Positions 3,501 to 64,000 of a DNA stretch of 64,000 nt are shown here, piece by piece. The stretch is taken from the NCBI GenBank assembly GCA_036172245.1, contig JAYWIR010000004.1, positions 310,001 through 374,000 on the forward strand, read 5' to 3'. The position numbers were made by a program, and so were the translations under genes. The notes beneath the pieces were generated by a model. That model made no database searches. It worked only from the letters and a program-made list of their open reading frames with translations, and was not told the DNA's origin. Positions within the stretch are counted from its first letter, which is position 1, and every line of letters begins with the position of its first letter. Origin of the DNA: Raillietiella orientalis. Its lineage: Eukaryota.

Positions 3501-5313
3501 TTATGAGATTTCAGCGTTTTGACATGTCCCTCAATGGGTTCACATCCAAGATATCGAAGCAAACTAATAACCTGCCAGCATTCCTGCATTTCATGTGTGG
3601 TAAACTTTGAAAGAAGGAATCCCGGGAACGGACTCTTAAGGAGTTATTCAACTAGTTATCGTATTCATCCCAATCTGCTTCATGGAGTATGCTGGTGAAA
3701 CGTATAAGCAGATGAAAAGTGGTAGGCAATGAGCCCCAAGCCACATAAGGGAAGCAGCCTACTTGGATACGATTTCTTCACAGTGCACAAAGTTATTCAC
3801 ATCAAGTTACAATGTTGAATTCTTTCCTAGAGTAGAATGCTGTGCTATGAAAAAACCGAAAATTCACTAAATGAAATTAAAAATGCAATTGTATTACGTT
3901 CAAAGTTTAAACGGTGTGCCAGTTTAGATTTGTTTCTGAGAATTTCCCACTGTCAATATCCGTAAACAGCTGTGCAGAATTCTGAAATCATAAACTGCTT
4001 AAGTAGTACGGTAGGAGCTGCTATGAGCATTTCCTATGTAGTCTTTTTACGGGTAAAGCCTTTTGTCAGTGTTGGCTTAAGCAACGTCCTCATCATTTGC
4101 AAACTCCGCTTCGAAATGGATTACTTTTTTGTTTCCAAAATTTTCAACCACATCAAAGGCATGCTTACTGCCGGCACTCAAGGTAAACTAATTTCAAGAC
4201 TCTCAGAAGGTTATGCAAAAGCTCATGCATATATGGAGGGACATCTCCAGTTATCAAAAGATGGCAAAGTCATCTTGGTTATCTTTTGATAAGTTGCCTT
4301 GGTGTGTCAAACCAGCATTGTTAAAATAGAGGGTGTGGTCGAACAGGTGAGGATGCAATTTTCAACGTGGTAAACGCATAAACCCATCCATCCCATTGGA
4401 AGGCTCTAGGACGGGTCCTGCTCGGTTATGCTGGTAGCACTTCGTACATCCGCTTTTGCACGTGAAGTTCGACTGAACACGTAAGTTGTAACCTGCTAGG
4501 AGCCTCTTCGAGCAGATCGGTTAAAAAGATGTCACCTGTTGGAGAGTTTGCAAGACTTTTCCGACACCCCAAGGCTGAATGCTGGAAACATTTTGCAATC
4601 ATGTGGATAATTTCAAGAAATAATTTGAAAGATTTCACGACAATCGGAACTTGCAGGGCGGTCAAATGGAACCTTTAGTCACAAGATAATGCACGACCAC
4701 AAAAGATGACCATCCGGTTACTCCAAAACATCGAAACATACGGGAGCTTTTGGAGATACCAAAAGAAATATACACACCTGGAAAAACTTTATTTAACTGG
4801 CAATTCAACAAAAACCTTCAAATGCCTCTGATAAGGTTTTTAAAGCTGTGATAAGCTGAAAAGCTGCTGCTCTAAATAAAAGTTCAATATCTTCGACTGT
4901 ATTAAGCTATAGATTAATACAATTATTTACATATAAAATCAAGTTTATTATCTGGACAGACTGTATGGGGCATCTCATACAAACGATATGCACATACTTG
5001 CATGCACCAAATATGAATGACAATAAAAATGAATTAATTTTTGGCTCACAGCACACAAAGCACTGGCAATATTTCTTGCTAGTAAGATTGCACTGCATTT
5101 TATTCTCAACACTTTTCAATCTAAAGCTAAGGGGCTGAAATCGAAGATTCTATGACTGGATTGCAAAATTTACTTGAATTTAATTTATGGAAAACAACCG
5201 TCCATGCATGGCAACATGTTTGGGTACATGGAACATACTGATAGTAATTCAGAAAGTTGCTGTCAGATGATATCAACAGAGATCTAAGAAGGAAATCACA
5301 CAAATGGAAGCAA

Positions 5314-8300
5314 TCATCTATTGATATGTAGCTTAGCTGCATGCAGCATATATTCCCACTTGTTGCACAAAGTGGGCAACACAGACATCAACAAACAGAC
5401 AGAGTCCTCTTTGGTCACATCTAAGTGTATTTTTCCCTTGATCTCATATAAAGTTGAAATTAATTGAGAAAATCCTTGCTGAAAGATGACTGGATATTTC
5501 AACATACTTGAGTCTTTCAATTACTCACTATGTGTGCACAGTTGACTAAAAGGTCTTCATCCAATGCCAAATCAACAAGAGCAAACACAGTCAACAGAAA
5601 ATAGTAGTCAAAAATTTCACGCCAACGGAATTTGCGTAACACTGCAATCAAGTGACATGGATATACATATTCTGTAAGGATATGTGTTTTCTCTGGCTCA
5701 CAAAGATCTTGCAAAATCATGAATGCTAATAAATGAGTAAGTTGCTGTCCTCGTTTAGTAAAGGGCATTAAACGGCATACATGCAGCCTGTTATGGTGAT
5801 GATCAAAGCGGCGCATAAGCAAGCAACATAGGTATATTTTCTGTAAAAAGCATTCTAAAGCTGAAAAAGAATACCATATAAAAATCCAAGAATCCATACT
5901 TTGCCATTTCTGTTGTTTGAAGACCACCAGGAGTGCTCTGAATATGCTTCCAAAAGAATACAAATGCACTGACGCAATTCATCTTCTAAAATAAAATCAT
6001 ATCGCACTTTTTCTTCTAATGCCAGGGTAACAAAAACATGCAAGAACACATCTAGATCTTCAATAGGATATCTATGAAGATATAAACGCATGACATGACA
6101 TAGCTAGTAAGAAAACTATATAGCAGCTACACAAATTTCAACTAAATACCTGAAAAACTTGATATCTTGGAAAACATGTATTCAAAGAAGTAAACGAATT
6201 CCGAGCAGGTAAAAAGTAGTGGGATGAAAATGCCTTCTGCAAAATGTCCCATGTGAAGCCTGGAAACAATAAAATTTTTGTACAGCCATTCAACACAGTC
6301 AGATCTAGTTCCACATATATCTACAGACTACACAAAGAAAAAGCGAATAATCCCTAAAGTTCTGCAGCTAGGAAAGCTTACATGATTAAAACACTAATAA
6401 ACATGTCTACCTGTTGAGTGTATGACTCAATAAATGCATTCAATAAACAAACATATAATAGTGTACTAGATAATGCGAAAGCACAATCTTTATCATCTTT
6501 TTTGCTAAGAATCTAAACAGAATGCTACATACACAATGTCTTGTTTACATCCTTAGTAATAACATATTAAGAAATCTATTTCTTATTGCAGAATTACCAT
6601 TCCTCGGAAATGATAATACTGCAAAACTGGTTATTGCTTGTGGTTCTAGCACAATACAAAGGAACATTTGGGTACAATTCTTGTGCCTATGAACTTGTTT
6701 CAAAATTATTTCCCTGATGCTTAATTCTGAATTTTACAGTGAAAACAGTCTGCCAGTATTTATACATTAAGTAATTTTTACATAAATCTGTGGATACAGA
6801 ACATTTGTAAATGGAACAAAAATCCCACATATCAAGAAATTAGTGCACTAATATGTGAAAGATACTACATACCTAAATTACCTAACACAAGTAACATATA
6901 CCTTAAAGATGGATACCATAAAGAATGTTTCAAGTGTGCCAATTCATAAAGTAAATGAGAACCTCTTTCCAGTGTTACTTCTGGAATTTCAACCAATCCG
7001 AACAGCAAAAAAAAATATTTCATAAAGGGCTGGACTTCCTGATCATTTGAAAATGCAGCCTAAATACGAAATTATGGAATGAATATGACTTGTACTTAAA
7101 AAATGCAAACAATCCACACATGCATCAAATGGTCCTCTTATGATTATGAACAGAATCAAATTTGTGCTTCACTTTGATTATTAATCATAAAAATTTTTAT
7201 TTTCAACATTTTACAAAATCTCATTCAAATGCACAACAATTTGCATACACTGCTACATAACTTCCTAAATTTTGCTCCTTTAATGACTTGAACAAGCTTG
7301 AAAGCATGAGCTCACATAGCACCCTTAATTCCTTTTTAAAAAAAAACTTATTGAGAAGTTCAAGGCAGTTTCTTTTCAAAAGAATATTAAGTTAAACACA
7401 GCTCACATATATTTGTGCTTAAGTTGCATATTGCATGGTGCATTTTAAACTTTCTCAGAATCAATTCAATCATTTTAGAAGTATCAACGCTGTGTAACAC
7501 AAAGACAAAAAACACCTACCTCTAACTCCTCACTTAAACATTCTCTTATATAGCTTACCACCTTGTTTCATTACTTAATATTGGATTTTAATTGAGATTA
7601 CTATTAGTATTGAGATTATTAAGATATGTAAACTATTTTAGTTTGCCTCATAAATTTAAATTTAAATAATCTACATTTCATTATTTCTGAGTGCATAACA
7701 TTGACCAAAAAGACTTTAAAACAAAACGAGAGGCATCTTGTTTAAAAATTCCTGCTTAAAAATGGCCACAAACAATACAACCTACAATGCATATCTGAGC
7801 ATCAATCATACTGTTTAAACTTCATACCATAAATGTGGCATCAAGAAAACATTGATCATGCAGCAATTTTTTCATCAATTTTTGGATACTGGATGCAGGA
7901 TTAGGTAATTTCTGAACCCATCTTGGAAGAGCACACTTAAGCATATCTAAAAAGGACACATCTTTATAGTTATAAAAAAACAAGTTTCCAAAAATTATGC
8001 ATTAATTCTTAATGTCTCAACCATGTTAATCAGTGTACAAATTAGTAATAGTATTTTTCCTGAATAATCAATACTACATTAATGCTATATTTTCTAATAT
8101 TAGGTCACCTACTGTTCCTAAAATTTCTAAGTAGTTCGATTTAATATTCACATAGAATTAATTCATACCCAAATGATCATAACGCATGAATCTTTTTACA
8201 ACTAATCTGTCTGATTTCTAACTTTCGGATGACCCAAAGATAATGAATAAGACACACATTACTGCAATCATGATAATGGTATATTTAAACAGCAGAGACT

Positions 8301-14199: not shown

Positions 14200-15650
14200 T
14201 GAGCTGGCCAAAGAAATCGCGTGTCATGAAAACCGGGAATATCAGGAGATCCCAATGGAAAATCATAATCCCAATTAGTTATAAATTTGATCCTGGAACT
14301 CGAGGAAAAAATAATAGCAACTCTGCAGTCATGGAAGTTTCGGGAGCAGTAATCAAATATACCTTCTCGATGCATATCGCAAGGTCCTATCTTTTTAGAT
14401 AAACAAACTCATGGCAAAACAATGATCCACATGGATGTGGAAACTGTTTTACGTAATAAAATCAATCTCATTTATGCAATCTTTCGAGAAGTGATCTTCA
14501 GGAATACAAGACCTGAGAAGAAATCTCACCGAGCACGTGGCAGATGCATGACATTTGAACTTTTGAGTGACGACGAACCAAAACTCAAGATCGGATGAAA
14601 AAAGGTCCATCCCAAAACTTGAACCTAAGGTACTCATAATCAAGACCTTAGCGGAAGAAAAAAGCCAAGGGGTGGATGCCGAGTTGTAGAGGAGGTAATC
14701 ACATCAACTCCACAGACAGAAAGAGTAAGCACAAGGAAGACTCCATCCATATCTTTGGAGTATTCCTTGTATTCTGGCATCCTTGTATTCTTACATCAAT
14801 AAAGACTATGAATGCTGTATCAGAAAATTCAGTGAGGAATACCTGATATCATGCTACAAACAATTTACAGAGGCTGTTGGAATGTACTGACTCATTCAAG
14901 TGGGAAACTTCAATCGTCCAATCTCTAAGAAGAGTCAACAGGAAGCAATAGATTGTCTCTTGACAGCAATGAAAAATGCAATAAACGAAACATCCTAATA
15001 ACCGGAGATGGAGGTCACACGCCTCAATTCAAGAGGACCATTTCCGTGAGGGAGCTGGTGCCTTGCCGCTCGGAGAGGAGCTGAAACCCAAGAATTTCTT
15101 TGGAGGATTCTTACTTGGAGCTACACTACATCGTATGCAATTCAGAGCGGCTAGGTGTGAAGCCCACACTCCACCTGTGGGAAAAAGTCACACCTGAAGC
15201 TCAAGGTGGAACTTATAAGACTGGAGAGACATTCTTGGAAGAGATCTTGCGGACTGAAAAACACGTGCAGAATGAGGAGCTTGCAGTACATGCGTAACAT
15301 CTCGACACCTCTGCTCCATTGGATACAGCAGGGTACGCCATTCCCCAGTGGCCGAGGATGCTACTCCTATGCTGTCCTCACCTGCTGTTGTAAAACTAAC
15401 AGTGCAGTGTACCCTGCAGGACCGAACTAGAGTAGGTGGCCAGCCGAAGACTAGCGCAGACTTCCCAATCAACAAGCAATACCCACCATGGCGACGAGGG
15501 AAGCGTCCATTAGCCAAACGTTGGTGTCCTACGTGACGATGGCATCCTTCAAGGAAATGCCGCCGCGTCCGTATCAACCAGCAGAACAGGCATGTTGAGA
15601 ACATGCATGGAAATACGAACCCCTAGGAAATGTAGGTCCACACTGTTACT
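14200..15650 (+). mobile_element. Heavily decayed Ty3/gypsy-like pol remnant
   Basis: Motif relics in pol order: ISYKFDPGT (protease DTG-like), LQRLLECTDSFKWE (RT-RNaseH connection), TPFPSGRGCYSYAVL..DRT..RWP and PYQP..N..VENMH (integrase). Many stops and frameshifts. Confidence 0.4.
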
Positions 15651-18110: not shown

Positions 18111-19203
18111 TTAGTCCTCATCATCGGGTAAATGGGACGGGTCGATCCTGAGCTCGTCCAGGGTCTCGTTGAGCCTGGCAAGGAACCACTGCGAGGCCTC
18201 GATGCGCTCCTGCAGGACGGAACCCAGCTGCACCAACAGCCCTCCCGCGCTGTCCTGGAGGGTCTGCGACGCGAGGTTGCGGAGGATGTTGAAGAAGGTC
18301 TCCGTGAGGGAGCTGGTGCCCTGCCTCTCGGCGAGCGCCTGGTCCCGGAAGGAACGGAGCACGGTCAGCAGCGTCCTCGTCTCCTCCGAAGTCGCGTTCG
18401 AGGACCTCAGGACGCACGAGCGGTGGCTGCGGAAGCGGCACGCCAGCGCCTCGGGGTCGAAATAGAGAGGGTAGGGGCACTGCAGGCGGTACAGCCTGCT
18501 CTGGGAGCAGCGGTAGAAGGAGGCGCAGTCGATGGGGTCGCTCCTGAGGGGGGGAGAGAAGGAGCAGGGCTCTTTCTTCTCGGAGGCGGCGCCCGCGGGT
18601 GGTGGGGCTGCAGGTGACCTGGAACGGGAGATCGCGAGAGGCCCGACGCTTTTTGCTGGAGGCAGTGCGTCAGGTTAGCAAGACGGCCGGCGTGACCCAC
18701 CCAAAGCAGGGGGGGGAGCGGAGCAAGGAAAGCGCGGAGAGCAACCTCACTCTTGTCCCCCAAGGGGGACAAGAGTGAGGATCTTCCGAGGGGGACGCAA
18801 GCCTTAGTCAGCAGGGGTGCCAGATCCCAGCCGGGACAGGTCGAAAACGGCTTACCACAGCGACGAGGACGAGCAGTTCACTTCCGAGGGCAGGTCGCAT
18901 ATGCGGAGGGCGAGGTTGAAGATCAACGGGCGGGGGCAGGAGAACACTGCCGCTTTCCGGTCGTGGCACAGGTGGAACTCTGAGCACGAGCCGGAGAAGA
19001 AGGGGTTCGCGTCTCTGCTACCGGACGTGCACTCCCTCAGGAACCGGGAGTATGCCTGACCCCATTCCTCTGCAGGCGGGACTCCTCCTCCTTCGGGTCC
19101 TTTCCCCGGGACTGGGTGGGGCGCGCCGTTGCTTGCCGTCTCGGTGCCCGACCTCGGAGCGGCAGCGGCCGCCGCAAAGAGGAAAACGCTCAAGTGCAAA
19201 ATC
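18111..19203 (-). CDS. Cluster gene A: secreted protein, signal peptide + 2 CBM14 (peritrophin-A) domains + C-terminal helical domain (exons 2-3; ~286 aa with first exon)
   Basis: Exon 19203-18856 (ttccag|G ... TG|GTAAG) encodes ILHLSVFLFAAAAAAP...CTSGSRDANPFFSGSCSEFHLCHDRKAAVFSCPRPLIFNLALRICDLPSEVNC. Exon 18618-18111 (ttccag|G) continues in frame with CSFSPPLRSDPIDCASFYRCSQSRLYRLQCPYPLYFDPEALACRFRSHRSC and then LLTVLRSFRDQALAERQ...RLNETLDEL. AATAAA at 18062-18057. Confidence 0.88.
18745..18780. repeat. Perfect 17-bp inverted repeat in an intron of gene A
   Basis: cctcactcttgtccccc-aa-gggggacaagagtgagg. Confidence 0.9.
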
Positions 19204-33129: not shown

Positions 33130-35219
33130 CTAGCTCTGGAGGACGTTGAGGGTGGTGTTGAGACGCCTGAGGAAGGTCTGCGTGTTGTCGATGCGGGTCT
33201 GCAGGATCTGCCCCAGCTGGTCGAGGACTCCGGCGGCCCTGTCGCGGATGGCCTGGGTCGCGTAAGCTCCTATGTCGCGCAGCAGGATGAGCAGCAGGGA
33301 GGTGGCGTCCTGCCGCTCCTCCATGACGTCCTTGTCCAGGCTCTGGACGGCGGCCAGGAGCGAGTGGAGGTTGCCAGGGTGCAGCTGGATGGGCGGATCC
33401 TCCGTGCAGCCCGGGTCGCGGGGAACGTCGCAGGCCTGCAGCTTCTCGTCGAAGCTGAGCAGCGGGGGGCACTGGTAGAGGTACTCGACGCCGTTGTGGC
33501 ACTGGTAGAAGAGGGAGCAGTTGTGGGGGTCCCTCAGGAACTGCCTCTCGCTTCGGAGCAGGCAGCGTGTGCTCTGGCGGACCAGCTGAGCGCCGTCATC
33601 GTCCTGGAGACCATGACCTCCCTCTTCGGGGGCCGGTTCCGTTCCCGAACCGTCCACCTCGCCGCTTCCGGCCGCGTCCACATTGCCGGGAGCTTGCTTG
33701 CCGTCCGCGGTGTCGATTTTCAGGGAGCGCAATTTGAAGTTTTCCGGGTGGTCCTCAGAGGCGGGCTGGAACTTGCCCTTCGTCGCGGGCCTAGCAGCTG
33801 AATCCTGTCTGCTGTAGAAGGACGGGAGCCCCCTGGGAAGTGGAGAGAGGCATTCGCCCGTGGCCCGGAGCACTCAAGAGAAACGAGTGTTCGCAACCCC
33901 TCTGCGGGGAAAGGAGAAATGGAAGAGGGAGGAAGGAGGAGAAAGAAAAGGAAGGGAGCAGAGAAGAGGAGGAGGTGATGCTGACCGACAGAATGGGGAT
34001 CGAGAGAACAAGAGTGGGCCTTGCAGCAGAATCTCACCTGCCAAAAGAGCAGTTGACGTTGGTCGGGAAGTCGCAGACGCTCTTGTTCTCGTTAAAGTGC
34101 AGGCCCGGAGGACACAAGAGCTTCCAGGCGACCCCACTGTCGCACATGTAGAACTCCTCGCACCGGAAGGGGTGAGGCAGGAAGCGTGTGTAGTTCCCGT
34201 TCGTGTCGGGACACTGCTTGGACATCTCAACAGAGCGCACGGACAAGTAATCGGCCAAGTTCTCCCTGGACACGGTTAAGTCTGGTCGGTCCCTCGCAGC
34301 GGACCCGTTGTTCTGCTTCCCGGAGTCCTTCGATCCGACAGAGCTTCCCGCCATCAGCGCCGCCCACAGCACCAACAGGGTCCTGGAGGAGGCAGGCAGT
34401 CGGAGGCAGGAACAAGAGCGTCTCCAGCGGCTCCGACTGCTTCCGGACAGCTCGCCTTCCAGCGGGGCGGGCGAAGAGACCTGAGAGACTTCCGCGAGCC
34501 CTCTGGTTGCAGGGGAATCCCGAAAGGGGGCCCAACGATTCTCCTGGACGTTACGCTTTCCGCAATGCTCGGAGGGGAACTTCCACACAAGGGAATGCCC
34601 TCCCCGGGCCCGCAGCTCTTCGGCGACCCGCGAGCGGTGCTCACAGAGGACTCGTCGCACGCCAATTGTGGTCAGCAGGCAGGAAATGGAACGACCCGAC
34701 AGTGCCACTTCCTGTCATCTGGATCCTCGCCTCGAACCGCCTGGAGGCCTTTTTTTTCTTTGTTTCCTCCTATCTCCTCCCTCCCCTGACCCCAGGATCT
34801 TTCTTTCTCTACTGCGGTTTCCTCGAGGAGCCAACACTCCTAGGTTGCATTCAGGCCGAGAGCGAGAGGAGAAGAAACGCCCCCGCGACCTCCTCGGATC
34901 TCCGGCACAACCTTTCGGAGAGAACTGGAGCGCGCTGCCCTCAGAGTCGCCGGGAGAAGAGCAGGGGAAAAGGGGGGGAATCCCGGACCCTTTGCCACCA
35001 CCATCCGAGGTTCCTTTGGTCACCGCCCTCACGAGCCGTGACTGCACCCATGCGTACCGGTCTGCTCCCTCTCTTTCCTCGCCCACGGGGCAATGCGCTT
35101 GCAGCGCAGGAGGGGAAAAAAAATGTACCAGGGAGACCCCAACAGAATGACCCTCGTAAATCCAGCCCTGGGCAGAAGCCAGGGCTGCCCCTGTCCCTCC
35201 TCCTACCCACCTACCTCAT
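33130..35219 (-). CDS. Cluster gene B: secreted protein, signal peptide + 2 CBM14 + helical tail (~343 aa)
   Basis: Exons 35219-35215 (ATGAG|GTAGGT), 34382-34038, 33811-33130, all joined by phase-2 introns. MRTLLVLWAALMAGSSVG; CPDTNGNYTRFLPHPFRCEEFYMCDSGVAWKLLCPPGLHFNENKSVCDFPTNVNC; CLLRSERQFLRDPHNCSLFYQCHNGVEYLYQCPPLLSFDEKLQACDVPRDPGC; tail SLLAAVQS...RLNTTLNVLQS. AATAAA at 33092-33087. Confidence 0.92.
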
Positions 35220-37843: not shown

Positions 37844-40800
37844 TTACTGATCACTCTTGAAGACATTGTTGAGCTTATCCAGGATTGATATGGTAGAGTC
37901 CATGCGCTTCTTCAGAATGTTCTCTACGTCCAGTAGGCCGTCCAGTTGCCTGCTCTCTGTCCACTCGGAGGTGTCGTCACCTCCCTCCGGATCGTTCAAG
38001 AGGGCATCCAGTTTGTTGTATGCATGGAACTGGTCTGCCAGCAGCTGCCTGCGGACCGTCTGCGTGACGAACAGAAGGAATTGCAGGTCGTTCGGGATTT
38101 TCTTTTCGGACTTAAGCAGCGTGCAGCTGCTACTCTCCGGCTTCAGGCAGAGCTGCAGATCTTCGTCGAAGTGAAGGCCGTCGGGGCACTTGAATGTGTA
38201 TTTGTTATTCCCGTCGAGCTGGTGGAAGACTTCACAGCTGCGTTCGTCACTTAGGAAACGAGTCGGTCCCGCCGAGCACTCCCCGTAAGAACTAACGTTC
38301 CCGTGGAGAATCTCTTGTGACCTGAAAGATTGCAGAGCTCAGTCTTACCCTCCTCGAACACCACCCTATCTCCTTCTCTCTCTTTGAGGGACACTCTCCC
38401 GACTAATAAGTGTTGTTTGGATAGCGGCCGACCTTCTGGAGAAAAATCAATACAGTCCTACGGGGAGAGGAGGGCGTCTTCTCTGAGAACGCTCTTCGGG
38501 CATAGAGGATTCGATGGAGTGGCCATAAAGGGTGAGGTCCCATTGTCAGTAGCGAACGCGGCAAAGCAGTTTAAATGCGAGCACCCGTCTGATGAACGCC
38601 ACCTCGAGATGGAAAATTTTGCTTTTGTCACCTTCTTGCATGGCTGCATCGCTGTTGATCAAGGAAAGGCGCAGACGTGGTTGGTTCTAGTGAAACTGCT
38701 GCACTGGCTGTCGCCTAGTGCGCAGGGTAGAGTCGCGTCCCCACCAACCCGTTGTTCGTCACTCGGGAATTTTTCCGAGTCACACATGATAAGGTGAAGG
38801 TCGCTTTGGAAACGGTGGAGGGCAAGCAGGACTTCCACGGCTGATCGACCCCTTGGATGCCCTATCAGTTGAAGTTCCCCAAGAGGGTCACGAGAGCAAA
38901 GATCCATTTTCCAGAGATGTTGAGATGCCAATCAGAGAAGAAGATCCGGATTTTCCGTGGAATTTTTCTGGGTTGCTCCAGGGAATAAAGTTTCGAAAAA
39001 TTGTCCTAGTGGAGAGATCAACCTCTGATCCGGTTCACTCTGAAGTCTCGCGCTTCTTCGGCCACTTGATATACTGCAACTTTTTGCAGCTCTCCGAACA
39101 CTGCTGAATTTTCCTGTCAACAAAAGAAGACTAAGGTCACCTCATGCTTTCTTGTGGATGTTTTTCCCGCATGTGGTAACCATCGTGGTCAGCATAGCCA
39201 CCACCTGATGAAGACTTCGTGGTCGTGACCGACCTGGCTGACAAAGTGGATCGCGACCAAAGCTCGGAAAGAAACAGCCAGATCACTTCCCTCGAGGGCA
39301 TCTTTGAAGCAAAAGTCGCGAGGCATGAAGTTTGTATCGCACGGCAGGGATGTGTTAACCATCAAAAGAACTCCGAAGACTCTGCAAACAGGGAACCTCC
39401 CTCCCACTCAGCACACCGTAGAATCCGAGGAGTAAGCAAGCAGGTTCAGTGTGCAGCATGGGAGCAGTCACCAAGGAGTCGCTCCCTCGAAAAATCGCCC
39501 CAGAGTGGAAGACGAGATCAAGCCGGAGAATTACAGCGGAGAATTGAAATGCCCAAAGGAGAAGCTGTTTTGGCTGAGTGGCGGCTGGACTTTGTTCCCG
39601 GTGGTTTCGGAAGCCGCAAAGATCTCGTCATGGAGTCGCGCCCGCGCTCCGAGGAAGAGCGCGGATTCCCTGAGATTCTCCGAAAGACCCGGAAAAATCC
39701 AGAGTCGGAAACAAGCAGAGCCACCGGTCTCAGTTTCAACCTCTTGACGGCGGGCTTGGGATGAAGTTCCTTGAGGATCGATGCACGCCAGGACTTGCAA
39801 TAGGGAGCCCAACTACTACTCATTCCTTCTTCTTCTGTCCTCCTGTTCCTCAGCAGAGTAAGCACCACCTTCTTTAGGAGAACAAGAGAAAGAATCCTCG
39901 ACAGCTGATTTCTCGCTGGATATAGTCAGACTCAGACTATTCCTCGGAGAGGTCTTCATCCAACACAAGGCCGCTGTGCAAGTGGCAGACAGGACCAGGT
40001 TCTTTTGCGATGTCTCGAAATCCGTCAAGGAGGAATTGGAGGCTTGGATGCAGTTCCGAAAGCGTTTCAGTGACGAAGAAAGCCGCGAGAGTAGGTGGAA
40101 GAGGTCGCTTTCTTCATCAGCCCTTCGACAGAAGGATCCCGTCCCCAGCTCAAAACCAAAGCCCAGAAGACCCTCAGACGAACTCGTAAGCGACTCGGAA
40201 TTTAAAATGCCAGGATCACCTTCCCTACGTGTGTGTGTGCATGGCACAATCTCCAGGGACGTGGAAACCGTCTCTGGGGTTATGCATTATCAGTAACGGA
40301 TACTTCTCTCGGGAACATGGCACTTCCCGACGGAAGCAGCAGTCCCGGGACCTTAGGGTAGCCACTCACCCCTGAGGAGTCTCGCAGTTGGTCCTGGAAG
40401 TGAGGTGGTTGCATATTCTGAAGAAACAATCGAAGTTGTAAGAAGTCGGGCATTCCTGCTTGTACGCGGTGCCGTCTATGCAAACGTAGTAGTTCCTGCA
40501 ATTATCTCTGTCCGCGACCAGGACAGGAAACCTGGAATTTTGAGGACAAGAGGCAGCACCTTCGTCGAGGTTGTTTCTCAAGTCAGTTTCCAAAGGGAAG
40601 TAACTCAGTAATTCGTCCGGGTCGTTTCCTGAAGAGTCTGCCTCCGGAGACTCCCTTAGGGAATATGGACCCGAGGAGACTTTGGAAGCAATGAAGAGGA
40701 CTGTCACGAAGAACCTAGGTCACAGAAAAAGTGCGAGTTAGAATACAACACTCGGCTACAGACTTCGAACAGGCAGCGATGACTCACGCACCGGGGCAGG

Positions 40801-45724: not shown

Positions 45725-48473
45725 CTACTGGACCCCGTGGAGGGTGCTGTTCAGGCGGTCCAGGAAGTAGTGAGTGGCGTCGATGCGGTCTTGAAGGCCC
45801 TTGCCGATCTGGCTGAAGATGGACGACGCCCGCTCTCCGATGGCCTGCGAGGCGAACGATCTCAGGTCGCGGATGAGGGCAGTCAGCAGGGAGGAGGTGG
45901 TCTGTCTCTCGGCCCGGATCTGTTCATGGAAGGAGCGGACGGCTGCGAGGAGCGACTGGTCGAAAGCATCGCTGCCCCCGCCGTGGGCCAAGTCATCGTC
46001 GCACTTCTCCTCGAACACCACGTCGCACGTCTGACGGATCTCGTTGAACTGCAGTAGCGGGGGGCATTCATAGACGTACTGCACCCCTTGCTGGCACTGG
46101 TAGAAGAGTCTGCAGTTGATGGGGTGTCTGCGGAACCTGGTCTCCGACAGGTTGAGGCACAGGCCCTCCACGGAGCTCGACAGATTCCCAGAAACCGTGA
46201 CGGTGGAATTCTTCCTGAAAGACCAATGGTTCTCTTGTAAAGCAAGAAAAAAAAAAATCTGATTCTGTCCCCCTTTTCTTGCTGGAGAGATCAGGAAAGG
46301 TTCCTGGGTCCGCCTAGAGGCAGGGGGGGAGTAAGCCGAAGACTTCGGGGGAAGCTTTGGGAGCTTCCTCGAATGTCATTGGGTCTCGGTTGCAATGCAT
46401 TTCGAATCTCCTAGCATCTGCACTCAAGAGCAGATACAGATACAGACCCTCCTCCCACCAGACAATTGTCTTGACTAATTCCCCGCTCCTTGCCTTCCAG
46501 GACTCTTCAGTGAATGGGAGTGAAGAGAAAGGCGCAGGGATCTCCGAAGAAAATGGACAGAAAAAAAAAGCACGAAAGCTTGTCCTGCCTATGAGGACTT
46601 CCAATCTGAGAAGCCATCCAGGGAACATCGTCCTGTTCAAGGTCGTCTTTTCTTACTCTTCCAAAGACAAAGCACCGCTCTACGAAGACCGCACCCCGAC
46701 TAGCTATCGGACTCTTGGAGCGCAGGCTCATCCGTTCACGGTTCTCGCCATACAAGAAGTCCTTCTCAACAAGGGAGACCTTTCTTCTCCTTTCCAGTCA
46801 CGGGACCCCCCCCCCCCCTCCGGCACATTTCCCCTAACTCACTTCAGATTACACTTGGCGGATTCGGGAGCATCGCAAATCTGCCTCTTGACATTGAAAT
46901 GCAGCCCCTGAGGACACGTCGCGTGGTAGGTGACCCCGGAAACGCAAAGGCGGTATCGATCGCAGGAGTACTCGTTGGCGTGGGCGTAGGGGTGGTCCCG
47001 CGGCTCGCATGACTTCGAATCCTGAGAGGGAGAGACAAACAAGTAGGCACCATCCGTGAGCGGTCCTTCATCCCAAGGATGGAGAGTAGGGGGAGACGCG
47101 AAGGAGCGGCACAGTCGCTTACCGCATTGGTCTTCCCTTCAGCTTCCTCGGACTTGCCTGGAGGAGGAGACTTCTTCCCGGGAGCCTTCTTCTTGGTCTG
47201 AGCGTCGCTGGAAGCTGAGACTGTCAGCAACACCAGCATCAGAACCAGCAGGTTGGGTGTCGTGGGACCCATCCTACAAGAGGCAGAAGCTGAGTTCTGC
47301 TCCCGGCCGCTTCCTGAGAAGCAGATCGGACGAAACGATCCCCTTGCTCCCCATGTTGCCCGCCAGGAGCCACTCGTCTCTCTGATTGGGAGAGCCAACC
47401 ACTGCTACCGCGAGGCGTGGGCGCCGCTGCCCGCCATCAGCAGGTGCCAAAAATCTACCCGCTTCCTTTTCTCTCCCGACGACGAGACGAAGGAGCAGGA
47501 AGGGACGGCAGTGGTCCCCTTGAAGAACTTCCATCACGAAGAAGATCGCAAGGGGTGATCTTAAAACATAGGAGCGAAGGATCATCCCCCAACCCCTGCT
47601 CCCTGAGCGCTCCCTATCCGTCGGAGGTGAAGCCTATTCCGGCAGCGCGAGGGCTCATGCCCCCTCACCCTCTTCTATTCCCCGGACCGGCAGCAGCTCC
47701 TTGTTCAAGTTCTGTTGTCCGCTGTGGAGGAAGGGGGTCAAATTTTCCTCGATCCCCCTTTCTCCATGGTTCTCTTTTTGGTCCTCCTCCACCCCATTCC
47801 TGCCGTGGGTGAGCACTCCGGAGTTCTCCGCGCGGAATCGACCTGCTTCCTGGGGGAACCGCCAGGCACCTCTCCGCAGCGGTGGCAGAACGTGGCGAGC
47901 GCAAACCTCCTCGAGGGACTGCTGCTCAAGCACGCAGTACTTCTGCGTCCTGGCTGAGCGCGCATCCGTGGAAGCCAGCGTTACCTCCTCAAAGCAGACT
48001 GCGGCAGGAGAAAGAGAGAGAGAGAGAGAAAGGAGGGGGCGCAGAAGGCGGAAAACGGAAGAAGAAAAAAAAATAACAGAAAAGCCTCTCACGCACAGGG
48101 CGGAACTTCTGGGAGGCTCTCCTCCTCCCTCCGCTGAGCCGCACCGTCGCCACGCGGGCGAGAGCAGCATCGAGAGAGAGGGACGCAGAGCGGCCGCGGT
48201 GCCAACCTCGCGGAACCACCGACCGACCGCTCCGAGTGCCCGCGCACACGCCCCCTGCGAGGAAGCCATCGTGGCGGGCGCGTAAAGCGCGGTGCTGTGC
48301 TCACCTTGCCTGCACCGGGTTCCCGCCCACCCCCTCTCTTTCTGGCGGCGACGGCGGCGACGCCACCCGCGGGGCACGGGACACTCCCAACACGGACACA
48401 CTCCCGAAGGAGGGGAGGGGGAGGAGGGGGCGAGGAAGGAAGGGAAAGAAAGAAAAAAAGACCCTTACCTCAT
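45725..48473 (-). CDS. Cluster gene C: secreted protein, signal peptide + 2 CBM14 + helical tail (~274 aa)
   Basis: Exons 48473-48469 (ATGAG|GTAAGG), 47273-47123, 47021-46843, 46214-45725; intron phases 2, 0, 2 are consistent. LLVLMLVLLTVSASSDA; CEPRDHPYAHANEYSCDRYRLCVSGVTYHATCPQGLHFNVKRQICDAPESAKC; CLNLSETRFRRHPINCRLFYQCQQGVQYVYECPPLLQFNEIRQTCDVVFEEKC; tail SLLAAVRSFHEQIRAERQ...RLNSTL. Confidence 0.92.
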
Positions 48474-49011: not shown

Positions 49012-50309
49012 ATGAGGTGAGTTGCATCCTCTTTGTAAAGAAACGGCGAGTCGAGCCGTCGTCCGCGCGCTGCGGAACCCGTGACGCAGCGGCGTCTGGC
49101 AATGGCCATCGCGACTGAGGACGCTCTCCTCTCGATCCTTCATCGCGCCGTGCGCAACCGATGCGAAGTCCAACACCGTCCGACGCGCCATTGGGTCGCT
49201 GCTCTCTGAGCAGCAGCGCCGGGAGATGACCCCGAAAAGCAGCGCGTTGTCCTTCCCTTCACTGTTGTTTTTTTTTTCGTCCCTCTTGGGGCGGGAGGCG
49301 AAATCACTGATCGGGGGTCCCTCGCCGAGGGGGTAGTTGGAAGCCATGAAGGTACGTTGCTCTTTGTTTCCAGGTTGCCGTGCTTCCTGCTGATCTGCCT
49401 GTGCTCCGCGGTCCACTGCAGTACCATCTACAGGAGGAACGTGGAAAGCACCAACAACGCCACATGGCATGGTCGCGGCAAAAATCCAGCTGCCCCCTCC
49501 GATGCGGAAGTCTCCAAACTCTGTCCCAACGTAAACGGGCCTGAGCCCGTCTTCATCTCCAGCCCCTACTACTGCGAGGAATTCTTCATCTGCGACAACG
49601 GGGTCGCCTGGAGCCACATCTGCCCTGAGCCCCTGTACTTCAACCCGGGAAAGCAAGTCTGCGACTTCGCCTCCAACGTCGACTGCTCATCGCAGGCCAG
49701 GTAACGGAGGGGCGGCACGGAAATGCCCCCCCTCCGGCGGCGGCGGCTGGGAGGGCCGCGCCCGGATAAGGAGTCGCCTCACACCGCTCCGCCCCTTCCA
49801 GGAAACCCGCGTCCTTGCTCAAGGGCGAACAAACCTGCGAGGGGTCCGACGAGCTGCTGTTCTTCCGCTCGCCATCCGACTGCTCCTCCTTCTACCAGTG
49901 TCACGAAGGGTTCCAGCACACCTACAGCTGCCCTCAGGGCCTGGTTTTCGACGAGAACCTGCAGATCTGCTCCCGGGGCTCGGACTGCGACCTGAGGAGC
50001 GCTGGGACCGCCACCTTTGAGTCCTTGCCCTCCCGACCCAGCAACCAGGTCGTGATGAAGCTGGAGTCGCTCCGGAGGAACATGCGCTCCGACTTCCGCA
50101 ACAGATACAAAGTGCTGACCAACCTGGTCCGAGAAGCCAAAACGCGCCTCGACAGGCAACCCGATACGCAGAGTCGAATAGAGAATTACGTTACACGATT
50201 CCGAGAGTCTCTGTTAGATCAGATCCAGGGAACGCAGAAGCTGCTGACCGAGCTGTACGGAGTGCTGGTGGAGTGGAGAAACGCGCCCGGCAACCAGAAG
50301 TCTCAATAA
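49012..50309 (+). CDS. Cluster gene D: secreted protein, signal peptide + 2 CBM14 + helical tail (~279 aa)
   Basis: Exons 49012-49016 (ATGAG|GTGAGT), 49374-49700, 49802-50309. MRLPCFLLICLCSAVHC; CPNVNGPEPVFISSPYYCEEFFICDNGVAWSHICPEPLYFNPGKQVCDFASNVDC; CEGSDELLFFRSPSDCSSFYQCHEGFQHTYSCPQGLVFDENLQICSRGSDC; helical tail. AATAAA at 50305-50310 overlaps the stop. Confidence 0.92.
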
Positions 50310-58044: not shown

Positions 58045-59366
58045 ATGAGGTAAGAAGAAGCTTTGGCTTTCTGTCCTTCCTGTTTCACTCCTCTCTTTTT
58101 TGACTGAGCATCGTCGAGAATCCTGTGAGGGTTTTTCGCGTTCTTTTCCGCAGACCATCTTTCGAGTAGCTTGAGCGAGCGTTTGCGGAAGAAATCCGCA
58201 GGATGTCCTAAGAGTAGCGGCGATCGGAAAGACAAGAGCACCTCGTTCTGAGGTTCCGGTGTGTTACAAGAACTTGTGATTCGCGTGCTCTCCTGCCCTC
58301 GTTGCATGCGCCATACGGAAACCGTCTCTTCCAAAGTGTTACTGACCCTCCTTCCCGCCGTAAACAGGAAATGGCAGCAGCAGCGGTGGCTTGGTTACGG
58401 GAAATCCGGAGATTAATGTGTGCGGCATTACTGCGCGGATTACTGCACTCTGCATTATCTGCGGGATGCAGAGTGACGCCCCTGCCGGTCTCCGTTCTCC
58501 CCTCTAAGGGGGTCCATCCGAGGGCAGTTGGATGACTTTCCCCCAGACGCGGTGCAGCTCCGGAGTCTGGTTGAGAACGGTTGCCCGTCAACGCGCCCTC
58601 ACTGAACTTTCCGCGATGTTTCCGCAAGAGGGTGGCCTCCCTCGGAGGCAAGGATCCTCCGCCAAGGGCAAATGCTCCAGTTTGGAGAGGGGCGGATCTG
58701 AAAAGCAGCTCCCTTTTCCTAGGATCTCCTTATTGATTTCCTGCCTGATGGTAGTCGCCCTGGACGTGACAATGGGCTACCGCCTGGAGAACGATGAGTC
58801 CGCCGAGCAGCCAGACCTGAAGCTGCCACCCATCTTAAAGAACCCGAGGTACGCGGCCGAGAGTTTGGCCCCTCTCTCTTTCCTCGCGTGACGGCGGACA
58901 TTCTTGCAGGAACAGGAACTCCCGAGGTAACTGCGAGTCCTCGAGCGAGCAGGAGTTCTTCCGCGAGCCGGACAAGTGCTCCCACTTCTACCAGTGCCAC
59001 CAGGGCAGCAAGCTGAGCTTCCAGTGCCCCGAAGGCCTGCATTTCGACGAGGAGCTGCAGATCTGCGACGACCCAAGGACCGCGGGATGCAACGTGGAAA
59101 GGGCGCCTCCCCTCAGCGAGAACATGCAGAACCTGCTGGACCTGGTCCAGAATCTGCGTAGCCAGGTGCGCGCGGAGCGCCACCGCACGTCCACCCTCCT
59201 GGAGTCCCTGATTTACGACATTACCAACAACCCGGGAGAAGCCTCAGCGTCCAGCACCTCCGAGGTGCTCGACCAGCTAACCAACATCCTCAACAGACGT
59301 ATCCAGAGGACGCGCGATATCCTGAACAGCATCAGCAAGCAGATCGCAGAGGAACGCTCCCAGTGA
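58045..59366 (+). CDS. Cluster gene E: secreted protein, signal peptide + single CBM14 + helical tail (~195 aa)
   Basis: Exons 58045-58049 (ATGAG|GTAAGA), 58723-58848 (ISLLISCLMVVALDVTMG...), 58910-59366 (CESSSEQEFFREPDKCSHFYQCHQGSKLSFQCPEGLHFDEELQICDDPRTAGC...NLLDLVQNLRSQVRAERHRTSTLLESLIYDI...EVLDQLTNILNRRIQRT). AATAAA at 59370-59375. Confidence 0.88.
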
Positions 59367-61539: not shown

Positions 61540-63346
61540 TCACGACGCCGAGGTGGAGCTCACCGAGTCGCTCGTCGTGGCACCGCCTGCCCTGGAAGAC
61601 ACGCGTAGGTATGAGCGAAGGACGCAACCTGCACCGGCGCCACCCCTAACTAGAGGGCCGCGTGCCCGCTCTGTTCCACCTCACGATGGACCCGAGAGGA
61701 GGACGGGAGGGAGGGAGGGAAGAACGGGAAGGAGACACTTCTCCTCCGACACACGCCATCCGGTTTCGCTCTGGAGTCTTCACGAGCCTTCGGACATCAT
61801 CTAGGAAACGTTCCGGAAAGTAGGGAGGAAAAGCAGTAGGTGCAGATCTTCCTCCGGTTCAGTCTCTTTCTTTCTCGACTTCGGCATTGAGGCTGCTCTG
61901 GTCTCCAGGAAGCGGTGCTCTGGGGCGCTCCGCGGCAGGCTGGTGCAACCCACAGTTGAAGCCAGCGCCATGGTCAGGGGGTGCGCTTCTTCCCTTCCTC
62001 GGTGGAAAGGATCTGTGGTCGCGTGGACAGGGACCACAAGGGTCGGAAGGACCCTCTGAGAGGAAAGGGTGGACAGTATTAGCAAAGGTAGATGAAGAGC
62101 ACTCTGAACCACAGGGATCTTTCCCTCTCCGACCTCTGGTCGCGCGCTTTACCCAGGAACGCCGCAACTCCGTCCGCGTTTCCTGGAAACCTATCCGAGT
62201 TCTTCTTTGCCTTGTCTTTTTCAAAGAAACCTGCGAAACTCACTCGATCGGTGGACAATGTGGATGGTTTGTGGATCGAGGAGGGGGGGAACTCTTTTTC
62301 CCGAGGAAAGGAAGGGACCTTGGCGCTGCGCTTTCGTGATCCCATGGAACCTGAGAGTCTCAGTAGACCCCGATGGGGGGATCCCTGGAGATTCCACTGA
62401 TCTTATTGGGCTCCCTTGAAGCCTAGCGCGCCAACGGGTCACAACCTTTCCCTCTCGGAGGGCAGGGTAAGGGAGGGGGGGGGGGGAAGCGAGTCGCGTG
62501 CGTCCTCGAGACACCTCTGCCTTTCCCTCATTCCCGTATGGGGCTGGGGAGCAGCAGACCATTGGGCGGCAGGAGCTTCGAAGGACAGGAGCAGGGGAAG
62601 GGGGGGGGGGGCGAATGCGTGATCCACAACCTCACCTGCTGGCCCGGATGCAGTTCTCTGGCCCCGCGCCGAACACACAGATGCCCCTCTCGCCGTCGAA
62701 GGTCATCTGGAATGGGCACCTTATCCTGAACCCGTAGCTTCCGATGCACACGAAGAAGTATCGGCAGTTGCCCAGATCCTGGACGACCCGGGGGAAGAGC
62801 GAGTCGTTGGGACACCTATTGGACGGTGCGAACAGGTACGGCGTCGTCGTCGTCTGTTGCGGCTGCCTGTTGTCCTCGGTGTTCAAGGAGACGGTTCCAT
62901 TGACAGCCTTGGGCGGCGGAGTCGCGGAAGTGGCTGCCGCTGCCTTGGTGGTGGCGTTCGATGCCGTCGCGTTGCCCTCGCCGGGCGACGGAGTCGCGGA
63001 GGTGGCTGCCGCTGCCCTGGTGGTGGCGTTCGGTGCCGTCGCGTTGCCCTCGCCGGGCAACGGAGTCGCGGAGGTGGCTGCGCTGCTGCTGTTGCTCCGG
63101 GTGATGTTAGCATTCTTCTCGAGAGCGTCCTTGGTTCCGCTTTCGCCACTTCCAAGCAAAGGTGGGCCCAAGGGCTGCGTCTCCATGTAGGGGGGCGCCT
63201 TCTCCTGGAAGCGCTGCGGCGCCGACGGTGGCACGATTTCGTTGCTGCCCTCTGGCAGGCTGTTATCGTGCTTCCTCAGCTTGGTGGCGGCAAACGCGGC
63301 CTCATGTTGCAAGGCCGCCCCCACGAGCATCACCAGCCAGAACGTC
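61540..63346 (-). CDS. Cluster gene G: secreted mucin-like peritrophin, signal peptide + S/T/A-rich repeats + single CBM14 (first exon probably beyond the window)
   Basis: Exon 63346-62636 (ttcaag|G ACG TTC TGG CTG...; TFWLVMLVGAALQHEAAFA; CPNDSLFPRVVQDLGNCRYFFVCIGSYGFRIRCPFQMTFDGERGICVFGAGPENC; AG|GTGAG). Tentative terminal exon 61591-61540 (AGGATTSDSVSSTSAS*) followed by AATAAA at 61427-61422. Confidence 0.8.
62913..63081 (-). repeat. Coding tandem repeat, 72-nt (24-aa) unit, ~2.3 copies
   Basis: AATSATPLPGEGNATAPNATTRAA / AATSATPSPGEGNATASNATTKAA / AATSATPPP; two N-A-T sequons per unit. Confidence 0.9.
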
Positions 63347-64000
63347 CTTGAAAGTGGCAGAAGTCAGAGAAAGGAAGTAGCGTGGCCTTCCTCCTGCGCC
63401 CGCTCGTACGATGACCCAGGACACCTCCGCTGTTGCCCTTGTTCGTTCGCGCTCACCCCCACCGCTCTCCTTTCCAGGCGGATTGGTTGAGAGGAAAAGA
63501 GTGAGGCATCGTCCCAGAAAGGACACCCCCTCCCTTTTTGAAAGATGCCTTCTAGCGGTACATCCACAGCGGCCATCCCAACTGTGGGCGTCCGGGGGGA
63601 TGAGCTGGAGAAACAGATTGCCTGAGGTTGACTGCGAAGTGCAGACATCTCGTGGAGGAAGCCGGGACGACGCCCTCCTCCTCCCTTCTCGCCTCTCGTG
63701 CTGCCACCGCCACTGTTGCCTCTTCGCGTGGTCGGCTGCAGAGGAGAACCGGGAGGTGCCCGGCCGGAAAAAGGGGTGCACATGCCTCCCGAGTCCTCAT
63801 CTCGGAACCACCATGAAGACTGTCACGAGGTGGACACAAATCGACTGCCGCAAAGGATCAGAAGGATCTTATGAGGCCCTAGGAGACCACCACCAACAGC
63901 ATCACTCTGAGAGGTGGTAAGAAACGACTCCCACCTTTCGAGTCACCAGACGGTAAAGAACCACCGTTACGTTGCTGGAAGGGTGGAACTTCAGTCGTTG

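Follow-up and report, generated by a model that had tools for sequence, protein, structure and literature searches.

A cysteine-free C-terminal tail, predicted to form a helical hairpin, in a tandem cluster of CBM14 genes from Raillietiella orientalis

Chitin matrices such as peritrophic membranes, cuticles and the walls of eggs and cysts are thought to be organised by proteins that carry several chitin-binding domains per chain. Here we analyse a cluster of six paralogous genes, A to F, on a 64,000-nucleotide stretch of DNA from Raillietiella orientalis (GenBank assembly GCA_036172245.1, contig JAYWIR010000004.1, positions 310,001 to 374,000 of the forward strand). This whole stretch is referred to as the window, and all coordinates are positions within it, with the strand in brackets. 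The family is like the peritrophin-type, or CBM14, secreted proteins in its signal peptide, its one or two six-cysteine CBM_14 domains and its tandem gene arrangement. However, we found no peritrophin-type or CBM14 protein with the C-terminal tail of this family. An earlier reading of the DNA, made from the sequence alone (the sequence-only reading), had marked this tail out at 45725-45965 (-) as a candidate dimerisation or lipid-binding module.

Two described systems come close to such an arrangement. The coiled coil of the matrilins is stabilised by neighbouring cysteines. Located at the C-terminus, it nucleates both homo-oligomers and hetero-oligomers of paralogues (PMC2427018). The matrilins, with a C-terminal heptad module on secreted matrix-binding paralogues, are the closest analogue of the mechanism proposed below. 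In matrilins the module consists of one parallel helix, whereas the tail described here is predicted to be a cysteine-free antiparallel hairpin, and there is no sequence similarity between the two. The second system is the Jessie3 lectin of Entamoeba, the 'daub' of the cyst wall, in which a chitin-binding domain is joined to a self-aggregating domain and complements multivalent cross-linkers (PMC2698119). By analogy, its functional logic would be the one that we propose. Jessie3 is set apart by a different type of chitin-binding domain and by a self-aggregating domain that is different and larger.

A conserved cysteine-free tail in six paralogues

The segment 45725-45965 (-) covers the last 78 codons and the stop at the 3′ end of a frame that is open over 45725-46375; it reads DQSLLAAVRSF...LNSTLHGVQ before the stop codon. 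The complete tail of gene C occupies 45725-46000 (-), with the stop codon at 45725-45727, and consists of the 91 residues after the last cysteine of a CBM_14 domain that shares its exon (46001-46159 (-), by Pfam). Searching the window by tblastn with the terminal exon of gene C recovered B at 33136-33564 (E 1e-39), A at 18159-18548 (8e-23) and E at 58926-59345 (2e-20), together with two weaker copies, F at 49827-50267 (3e-10) and D at 37844-38263 (1.5e-6). The initial observation is thus confirmed. The six terminal exons lie at 18.1 kb (A), 33.1 kb (B), 37.8 kb (D) and 45.7 kb (C) on the reverse strand and at 49.8 kb (F) and 58.8 kb (E) on the forward strand. All six contain CBM_14 (PF01607) at 30.7-52.9 bits, the Pfam gathering score being 22.1 bits, and in all six the domain is followed by 91-106 residues up to the stop codon that are free of cysteine, as the sequence-only reading had it.

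Besides that of gene C, the tails are found at 33133-33405 (-) in gene B (91 residues; recovered by tblastn, profile and alignment), at 18114-18413 (-) in gene A (100 residues, including an acidic C-terminal extension), at 59091-59363 (+) in gene E (91 residues), at 37847-38122 (-) in gene D (92 residues, divergent) and at 49989-50306 (+) in gene F (106 residues, the most divergent). The F tail is also the only basic one, with a net charge of +7; those of A, B, C, D and E are acidic (-1 to -7).

BLAST with the tail of gene C alone matched B (E 8e-20), A (1.4e-16) and E (2e-8); D was matched over its last 24 residues only (0.17), and there was no match to F. When each tail was scored against a profile with that tail left out, C reached 77.5 bits, B 69.6, A 54.9, E 51.5 and D 29.1, scores that none of 1000 shuffles attained, while F reached 10.0 bits, which 1 of 1000 shuffles attained. 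The significance of the alignment therefore holds for A, B, C, D and E and is marginal for F, and the same scores agree with the earlier remark that D and F are the more divergent copies. By these comparisons the homology of the tail is solid in four copies (A, B, C and E), significant in D and, when the tail is tested alone, marginal in F. Given its weak profile score, the case for the F tail rests mainly on position, length and helical character. Moreover, a profile of all six tails, run against all 1679 six-frame open reading frames (ORFs) of at least 25 amino acids, matched the six tails only, apart from one weak match at 15027-15110 (E 0.032). This weak match corresponds to a 35-nt fragment at 15043-15077 (-) that shares 91% identity with the stretch of gene A encoding helix 1 (18301-18335). 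The fragment translates as ...ERQGTSSLTE... within an otherwise closed frame and is probably the relic of a lost seventh copy.

Conservation is unevenly spread along the terminal exon. Averaged over the 15 paralogue pairs, identity is 40% in CBM14 (34% without the shared cysteines), 12% in the linker that follows, 28% in helix 1 of the tail as delimited below, 17% in the loop and 29% in helix 2. Insertions and deletions are confined to the linker, the loop and the C-terminus beyond helix 2. Ratios of non-synonymous to synonymous divergence (dN/dS) between the paralogues are saturated and biased by GC content at third codon positions (apparent omega 0.47-2.7, with one dS undefined), and only relative dN was used. 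In all six pairs examined, dN is lower in the helices (0.46-0.80) than in linker plus loop (0.80-2.18). The tail is under more constraint than its flanks and forms a conserved, cysteine-free C-terminal region in a six-member cluster.

In all six paralogues the tail and the terminal CBM14 are encoded by one exon, and the stops fall within about 20 codons of each other. A polyadenylation hexamer, AATAAA, follows the stop at 49 nt in A, 38 nt in B, 6 nt in D and 4 nt in E, hence within 50 nt in four of the six genes; the distance in C is 241 nt, and in F the hexamer was not found within 1.5 kb of the stop. Its background in the GC-rich part of the window is low, at 0.2 per kb per strand, and the closeness of the hexamer therefore marks the stop after the tail as a real gene end. 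The tail is thus a real C-terminal domain, shared by a small chitin-binding family that arose by tandem duplication. The distances of 4-49 nt in A, B, D and E also imply unusually short 3′ untranslated regions.

Predicted fold of the tail and the search for relatives

For the tail of gene C alone, AlphaFold2 (AF2) predicts helices at residues 8-48 and 52-90, with a mean predicted local distance difference test score (pLDDT) of 79 and a predicted template modelling score (pTM) of 0.53. With CBM14 included, the helices fall at 64-101 and 106-143 and the pTM is 0.37; the pLDDT is about 86 in the CBM14 strands and below 50 in the linker (residues 55-63). The low-confidence linker and the pTM of 0.37 indicate that CBM14 and tail are independent domains on a flexible tether. 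On the DNA, predicted helix 1 corresponds to 45857-45979 (-) and contains a conserved A-E-R-Q-x-T-S-S-L stretch, and predicted helix 2 corresponds to 45731-45847 (-) and contains an L-Q-x-R-I-D-x-T motif and an N-S-T sequon. Both models give an antiparallel hairpin, in agreement with the two-helix tail of the sequence-only reading, although the helices are 38-41 residues long and not about 30 as had been estimated. We predict with moderate confidence that the tail is an autonomous antiparallel hairpin, in which two amphipathic helices of about 40 residues would form a short coiled coil.

All 12 helices of the six tails are amphipathic, with a hydrophobic moment of 0.15-0.50, a content of large hydrophobic residues of 30-42% and no more than one proline each. 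Hydrophobic periodicity has its maximum at 100 degrees in both helices. The periodicity that had been noted by eye stands for helix 2, where 2 of 2000 shuffles reach it, and is weak for helix 1 (76 of 2000). The E-R motif ascribed to helix 1 is present in four of the six tails and replaced by DQ in D and DF in F; likewise, the R-I motif ascribed to helix 2 is present in four and reads RM in D and QI in F. An N-x-T sequon common to A (NET), B (NTT) and C (NST) was confirmed near the end of helix 2, that is, in three of the six tails. The turn at residues 49-51 places E31/R32 of helix 1 and R72-I73-D74 of helix 2 at a similar height in the model, and a polar contact between the two helices at this point may reasonably be inferred.

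Lastly, we sought relatives of the tail. No family in Pfam matches it, the six proteins giving merely sub-threshold coiled-coil noise in E and F, and a search of the PDB with a sequence profile of the tail gave a designed protein as its best hit (E 0.018). An exhaustive search of 1.84 billion representative proteins with the tail profile yielded no true relative. Two hits at E<=1e-3 were obtained in that search; both are long, internally repetitive proteins that were matched in 7 stretches, and they were judged spurious. Among the longer proteins of a 5.8-billion-cluster collection, none was found with the tail profile, and a profile of CBM14 plus tail retrieved one generic CBM14 protein (E 3e-4). 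The terminal exon of gene C had no relatives among proteins of near length. In the ESM Atlas the best scores were 0.81 for the tail and 0.75 for CBM14 plus tail of gene B, both below the useful range, and a scan of metagenome contigs with the gene C exon gave 106 pattern matches, of which 0 were confirmed. Full-text searches of the literature for CBM14 or peritrophin together with helical, dimerisation or oligomerisation returned nothing that describes such a tail, and those together with coiled-coil returned only a baculovirus genome paper. Going by these searches, the tail would apparently be a new, lineage-specific C-terminal domain on a known kind of protein. As a domain without detectable relatives it would define a new family, and it would offer a compact, cysteine-free hairpin for protein engineering.

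A possible association module and its alternatives

We tentatively propose that the hairpin may be a protein-protein association module, acting between copies of the same protein or between paralogues, that would raise the valency of chitin binding; we regard this as quite possible. Hairpins of the same protein or of different paralogues would pack into helical bundles, bundling would hold two or more CBM14 units together, and units joined in this way would cross-link fibrils of chitin more avidly. The conserved polar residues midway along the helices (E-R in helix 1 and R-I-D/Q-x-T in helix 2) would probably set the helix register or the specificity for partners. Given a charge of +7 in F and of -1 to -7 in the other five tails, and the head-to-head arrangement of genes C and F described below, association may even be paralogue-specific. 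Gene E apparently encodes a single CBM14, and its product could thus cross-link chitin only if it associates.

Structural neighbours lend this proposal an analogy and nothing further. Those listed first by Foldseek are the dimerisation domain of ING4, designed hairpin oligomers and helical hairpins of histidine kinases. The oligomerising hairpins closest in shape are ING4 (4afl), at a template modelling (TM) score of up to 0.70, and the designed protein 5izs, at 0.72-0.84. Like the predicted tail, the dimerising hairpins (the N-terminal domain of ING4, 4afl, and the designed 5izs and 6dmp) have two antiparallel helices of about 35-40 residues, with TM scores of 0.65-0.84 and a root-mean-square deviation of 1.5-3.0 A; however, the Foldseek E values are 0.24-0.83 and the identities 8-14%. 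This likeness reflects a common arrangement and speaks neither for kinship nor for a shared oligomeric state. In the same way, the model of the tail has the two antiparallel amphipathic helices with a short turn that mark ROP- and ING4-like modules. Many of the structural neighbours oligomerise (ING4, the designed hairpins, prefoldin, ESCRT-III), and none of them rises above the noise level of helical folds. A complex prediction with two copies of C tail residues 12-91, run without controls, scored 0.01 and counts neither way.

Several points weigh against association, or against the fold on which it depends. Foldseek gave 0 matches at E<=1e-3 (best E 0.24), and the VIA fold search, which is independent of Foldseek, returned generic hairpins with a best Z of 10.0, compared with about 13 for the level of a common helical arrangement. 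The comparison of models with known folds that had been suggested at the outset has therefore given generic hairpins only, none above the helical noise level. Moreover, the alignment supplied to AF2 consisted of six sequences, all from the window, and AF2 may draw confident helices for segments that fold only upon binding. To this must be added the weak periodicity of helix 1. A content of 30-42% large hydrophobic residues also suits a self-contained, monomeric two-helix coiled coil. Finally, a pair of CBM14 domains is already present in A, B, C and F, hence in four of the six proteins, and D may have one besides its terminal CBM14, so that multivalency would be possible without the tail.

These last points lead directly to the alternative that survives best, which we nevertheless think somewhat unlikely: the hairpin may act as a monomer, either docking some other partner (a further matrix protein, an enzyme or a receptor) or serving as a rigid spacer of about 6 nm. 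A single hairpin could by itself satisfy its narrow, a/d-type hydrophobic stripe, the ER and RID-x-T motifs, polar and conserved, could form a binding surface, and two CBM14 domains are already there in four of the six proteins. However, the 150 longest frames of the window, searched with Pfam, offer no candidate partner. On their own, two-helix hairpins of this length usually have only marginal stability, and they occur mostly within larger bundles, a general point that is reflected in the structural neighbours. If the tail were a monomeric spacer, the cluster would be an ordinary lineage-specific expansion of peritrophin-like genes.

The tail may instead have no stable fold and be a fast-evolving, helix-prone and conditionally disordered extension, for instance one that is processed off or that carries glycans. 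Such an extension would be in keeping with the fast evolution of the family (the apparent dN/dS of the helices is 0.6-1.1, a saturated and unreliable figure), with a pLDDT of merely 70-89 from a six-sequence alignment, with the lack of relatives in the searches above and with the N-x-T sequons of A, B and C. We consider it quite unlikely, since the helices retain 28-29% identity against 12-17% in linker and loop, their dN lies below that of linker plus loop in each of the six pairs examined, insertions and deletions avoid them and the hydrophobic periodicity is retained in six copies.

Lipid binding was the other function that the sequence-only reading had put forward. Like an exchangeable apolipoprotein or a helical antimicrobial peptide, the tail might tether the chitin-bound protein to lipid or membrane, or attack microbes. 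All 12 helices have the amphipathic character that this would call for and the F tail is strongly basic; however, the other five tails are acidic, and no apolipoprotein-type or other lipid-binding family of Pfam was matched at E<=1 in the six proteins. Exchangeable apolipoproteins are built from tandem amphipathic repeats of 11 or 22 residues, often punctuated by proline. The tails have 0-1 proline per helix and no internal repeat of this kind is evident in their alignment; moreover, a two-helix module is shorter than known lipid-binding bundles. We consider a lipid-binding tail quite unlikely. Least of all do we believe that the frames are chance ORFs or pseudogenes, which is almost certainly wrong: GC-rich DNA does yield many long spurious frames here, but the tails continue a Pfam-significant CBM_14 in frame, their protein sequence is conserved in six copies, canonical splice sites flank them and, in four of six genes, a polyadenylation hexamer comes no more than 50 nt after the stop.

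Returning to association between hairpins, a stronger form of the proposal would make the tail a lineage-restricted 'zipper' domain in which the surfaces of the paralogues, basic in F and acidic in the other five, constitute a combinatorial code of homo- and hetero-oligomers. We think this unlikely. If true, a single cluster would build chitin cross-linkers of graded valency and geometry, as an independently evolved invertebrate or protist counterpart, on a CBM14 scaffold, of the strategy of matrilins and collectins. The simpler proposal has a consequence of its own. Besides several chitin-binding domains per chain, multivalency would then have a second route in a helical module that associates with itself, and this could explain how single-domain members such as the product of gene E cross-link chitin.

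Gene models and the surroundings of the cluster

Read from the DNA, gene C has three exons and a product of about 272 amino acids. Exon 1, 47272-47123 (-), starts with an ATG, encodes a signal-peptide-like N-terminus (MGPTTPNLLVLMLVLLTVSASS...) and ends at a GTAAGC donor. Exon 2, 47021-46843 (-), has an AG acceptor before it and a GTGAGT donor after it, encodes the first CBM_14, which was detected by a profile built from the CBM14 domains of the window, and ends in phase 2. The hits of this profile agree with Pfam, except for one at 38146-38250, which is merely an out-of-frame seed of the profile matching itself and is disregarded. Exon 3, 46214-45725 (-), follows a tttcag acceptor and encodes a short N-x-T-rich stretch, the second CBM14, the linker and the tail. 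An acceptor-like site stands directly before the ATG, and a further upstream exon is therefore possible.

Two CBM14 domains, one of them encoded by an upstream exon, were found in A, B, C and F; Pfam gives 41.2-42.6 bits to the upstream exons of A, B and F. No upstream CBM14 of gene E was seen in the region from 57 to 58.9 kb. The exon with its hydrophobic leader (58723-58848) joins the terminal exon directly across an intron of 61 nt, and the gene seems to encode a signal peptide, one CBM14 and the tail. The terminal CBM14 of A, B, C, E and F retains all six cysteines, that of D five. The CBM14 of gene D (37847-38338 (-)) lacks the third conserved cysteine, HQL replacing YQC, and is left with an odd number; it may be a decaying domain, or its free cysteine may form an intermolecular disulfide. 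Gene D may also use a frame with a leader and a CBM14 at 40369-40719.

Five genes (A, B, C, E and F) have a signal-peptide-like hydrophobic stretch ahead of their first CBM14, and an obvious ATG with a signal peptide is seen in gene C only. In gene B a candidate first exon, from 34718 to about 34645, was inferred by eye. In gene F the sole ATG nearby (ATGAAG; 49340-49400 (+)) is one base out of frame with the hydrophobic leader, and an apparent gt...ag interval of 22 nt between the two is too short for an intron. This could reflect an indel in the assembly, or a true first exon farther upstream. In A, B, C, E and F the hydrophobic leader is closely preceded by an acceptor, always of the same phase, which fits a single ancestral gene structure. 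The proteins are probably secreted, with an architecture of signal peptide, one or two CBM14 domains, flexible linker and tail. At their C-termini, five of the six end in Q or QS (VQ, LQS, DQ, SQ and SQ), and A ends in the acidic run PDDED. Genes C (47272, -) and F (about 49210, +) are arranged head-to-head, about 1.9 kb apart, and may share a bidirectional promoter and be co-regulated.

The GC content is heterogeneous across the window (31-63%). The observed/expected ratio of CpG is 0.41-0.97 and mostly 0.8-0.97; this lack of depletion argues against a vertebrate-type methylated genome. Introns with canonical GT-AG borders indicate that the DNA is eukaryotic. An AT-rich block at 4001-8000 (GC 31-38%, CpG observed/expected 0.41) contrasts with the GC-rich gene cluster. 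Pfam found only CBM_14 in the 150 longest frames of the window, apart from a sub-threshold match to CANIN in a frame at 5520-5978 (-) inside this block (E 2.7e-4; 20.6 bits against a cutoff of 25), and an Rfam scan of the window gave no match. Two more CBM_14 frames lie in the cluster, at 62635-63363 (-) and 40369-40719 (-). They are of a different subtype, with a hydrophobic leader and a single CBM14 that carries an NCR-Y-[YF]-VCI motif. The frame at 62635-63363 (-) has in addition a mucin-like region rich in Thr, Ala and N-x-T; the DNA that codes for this region is a 72-bp tandem repeat (62911-63086; 2.5 copies, 94% matches).

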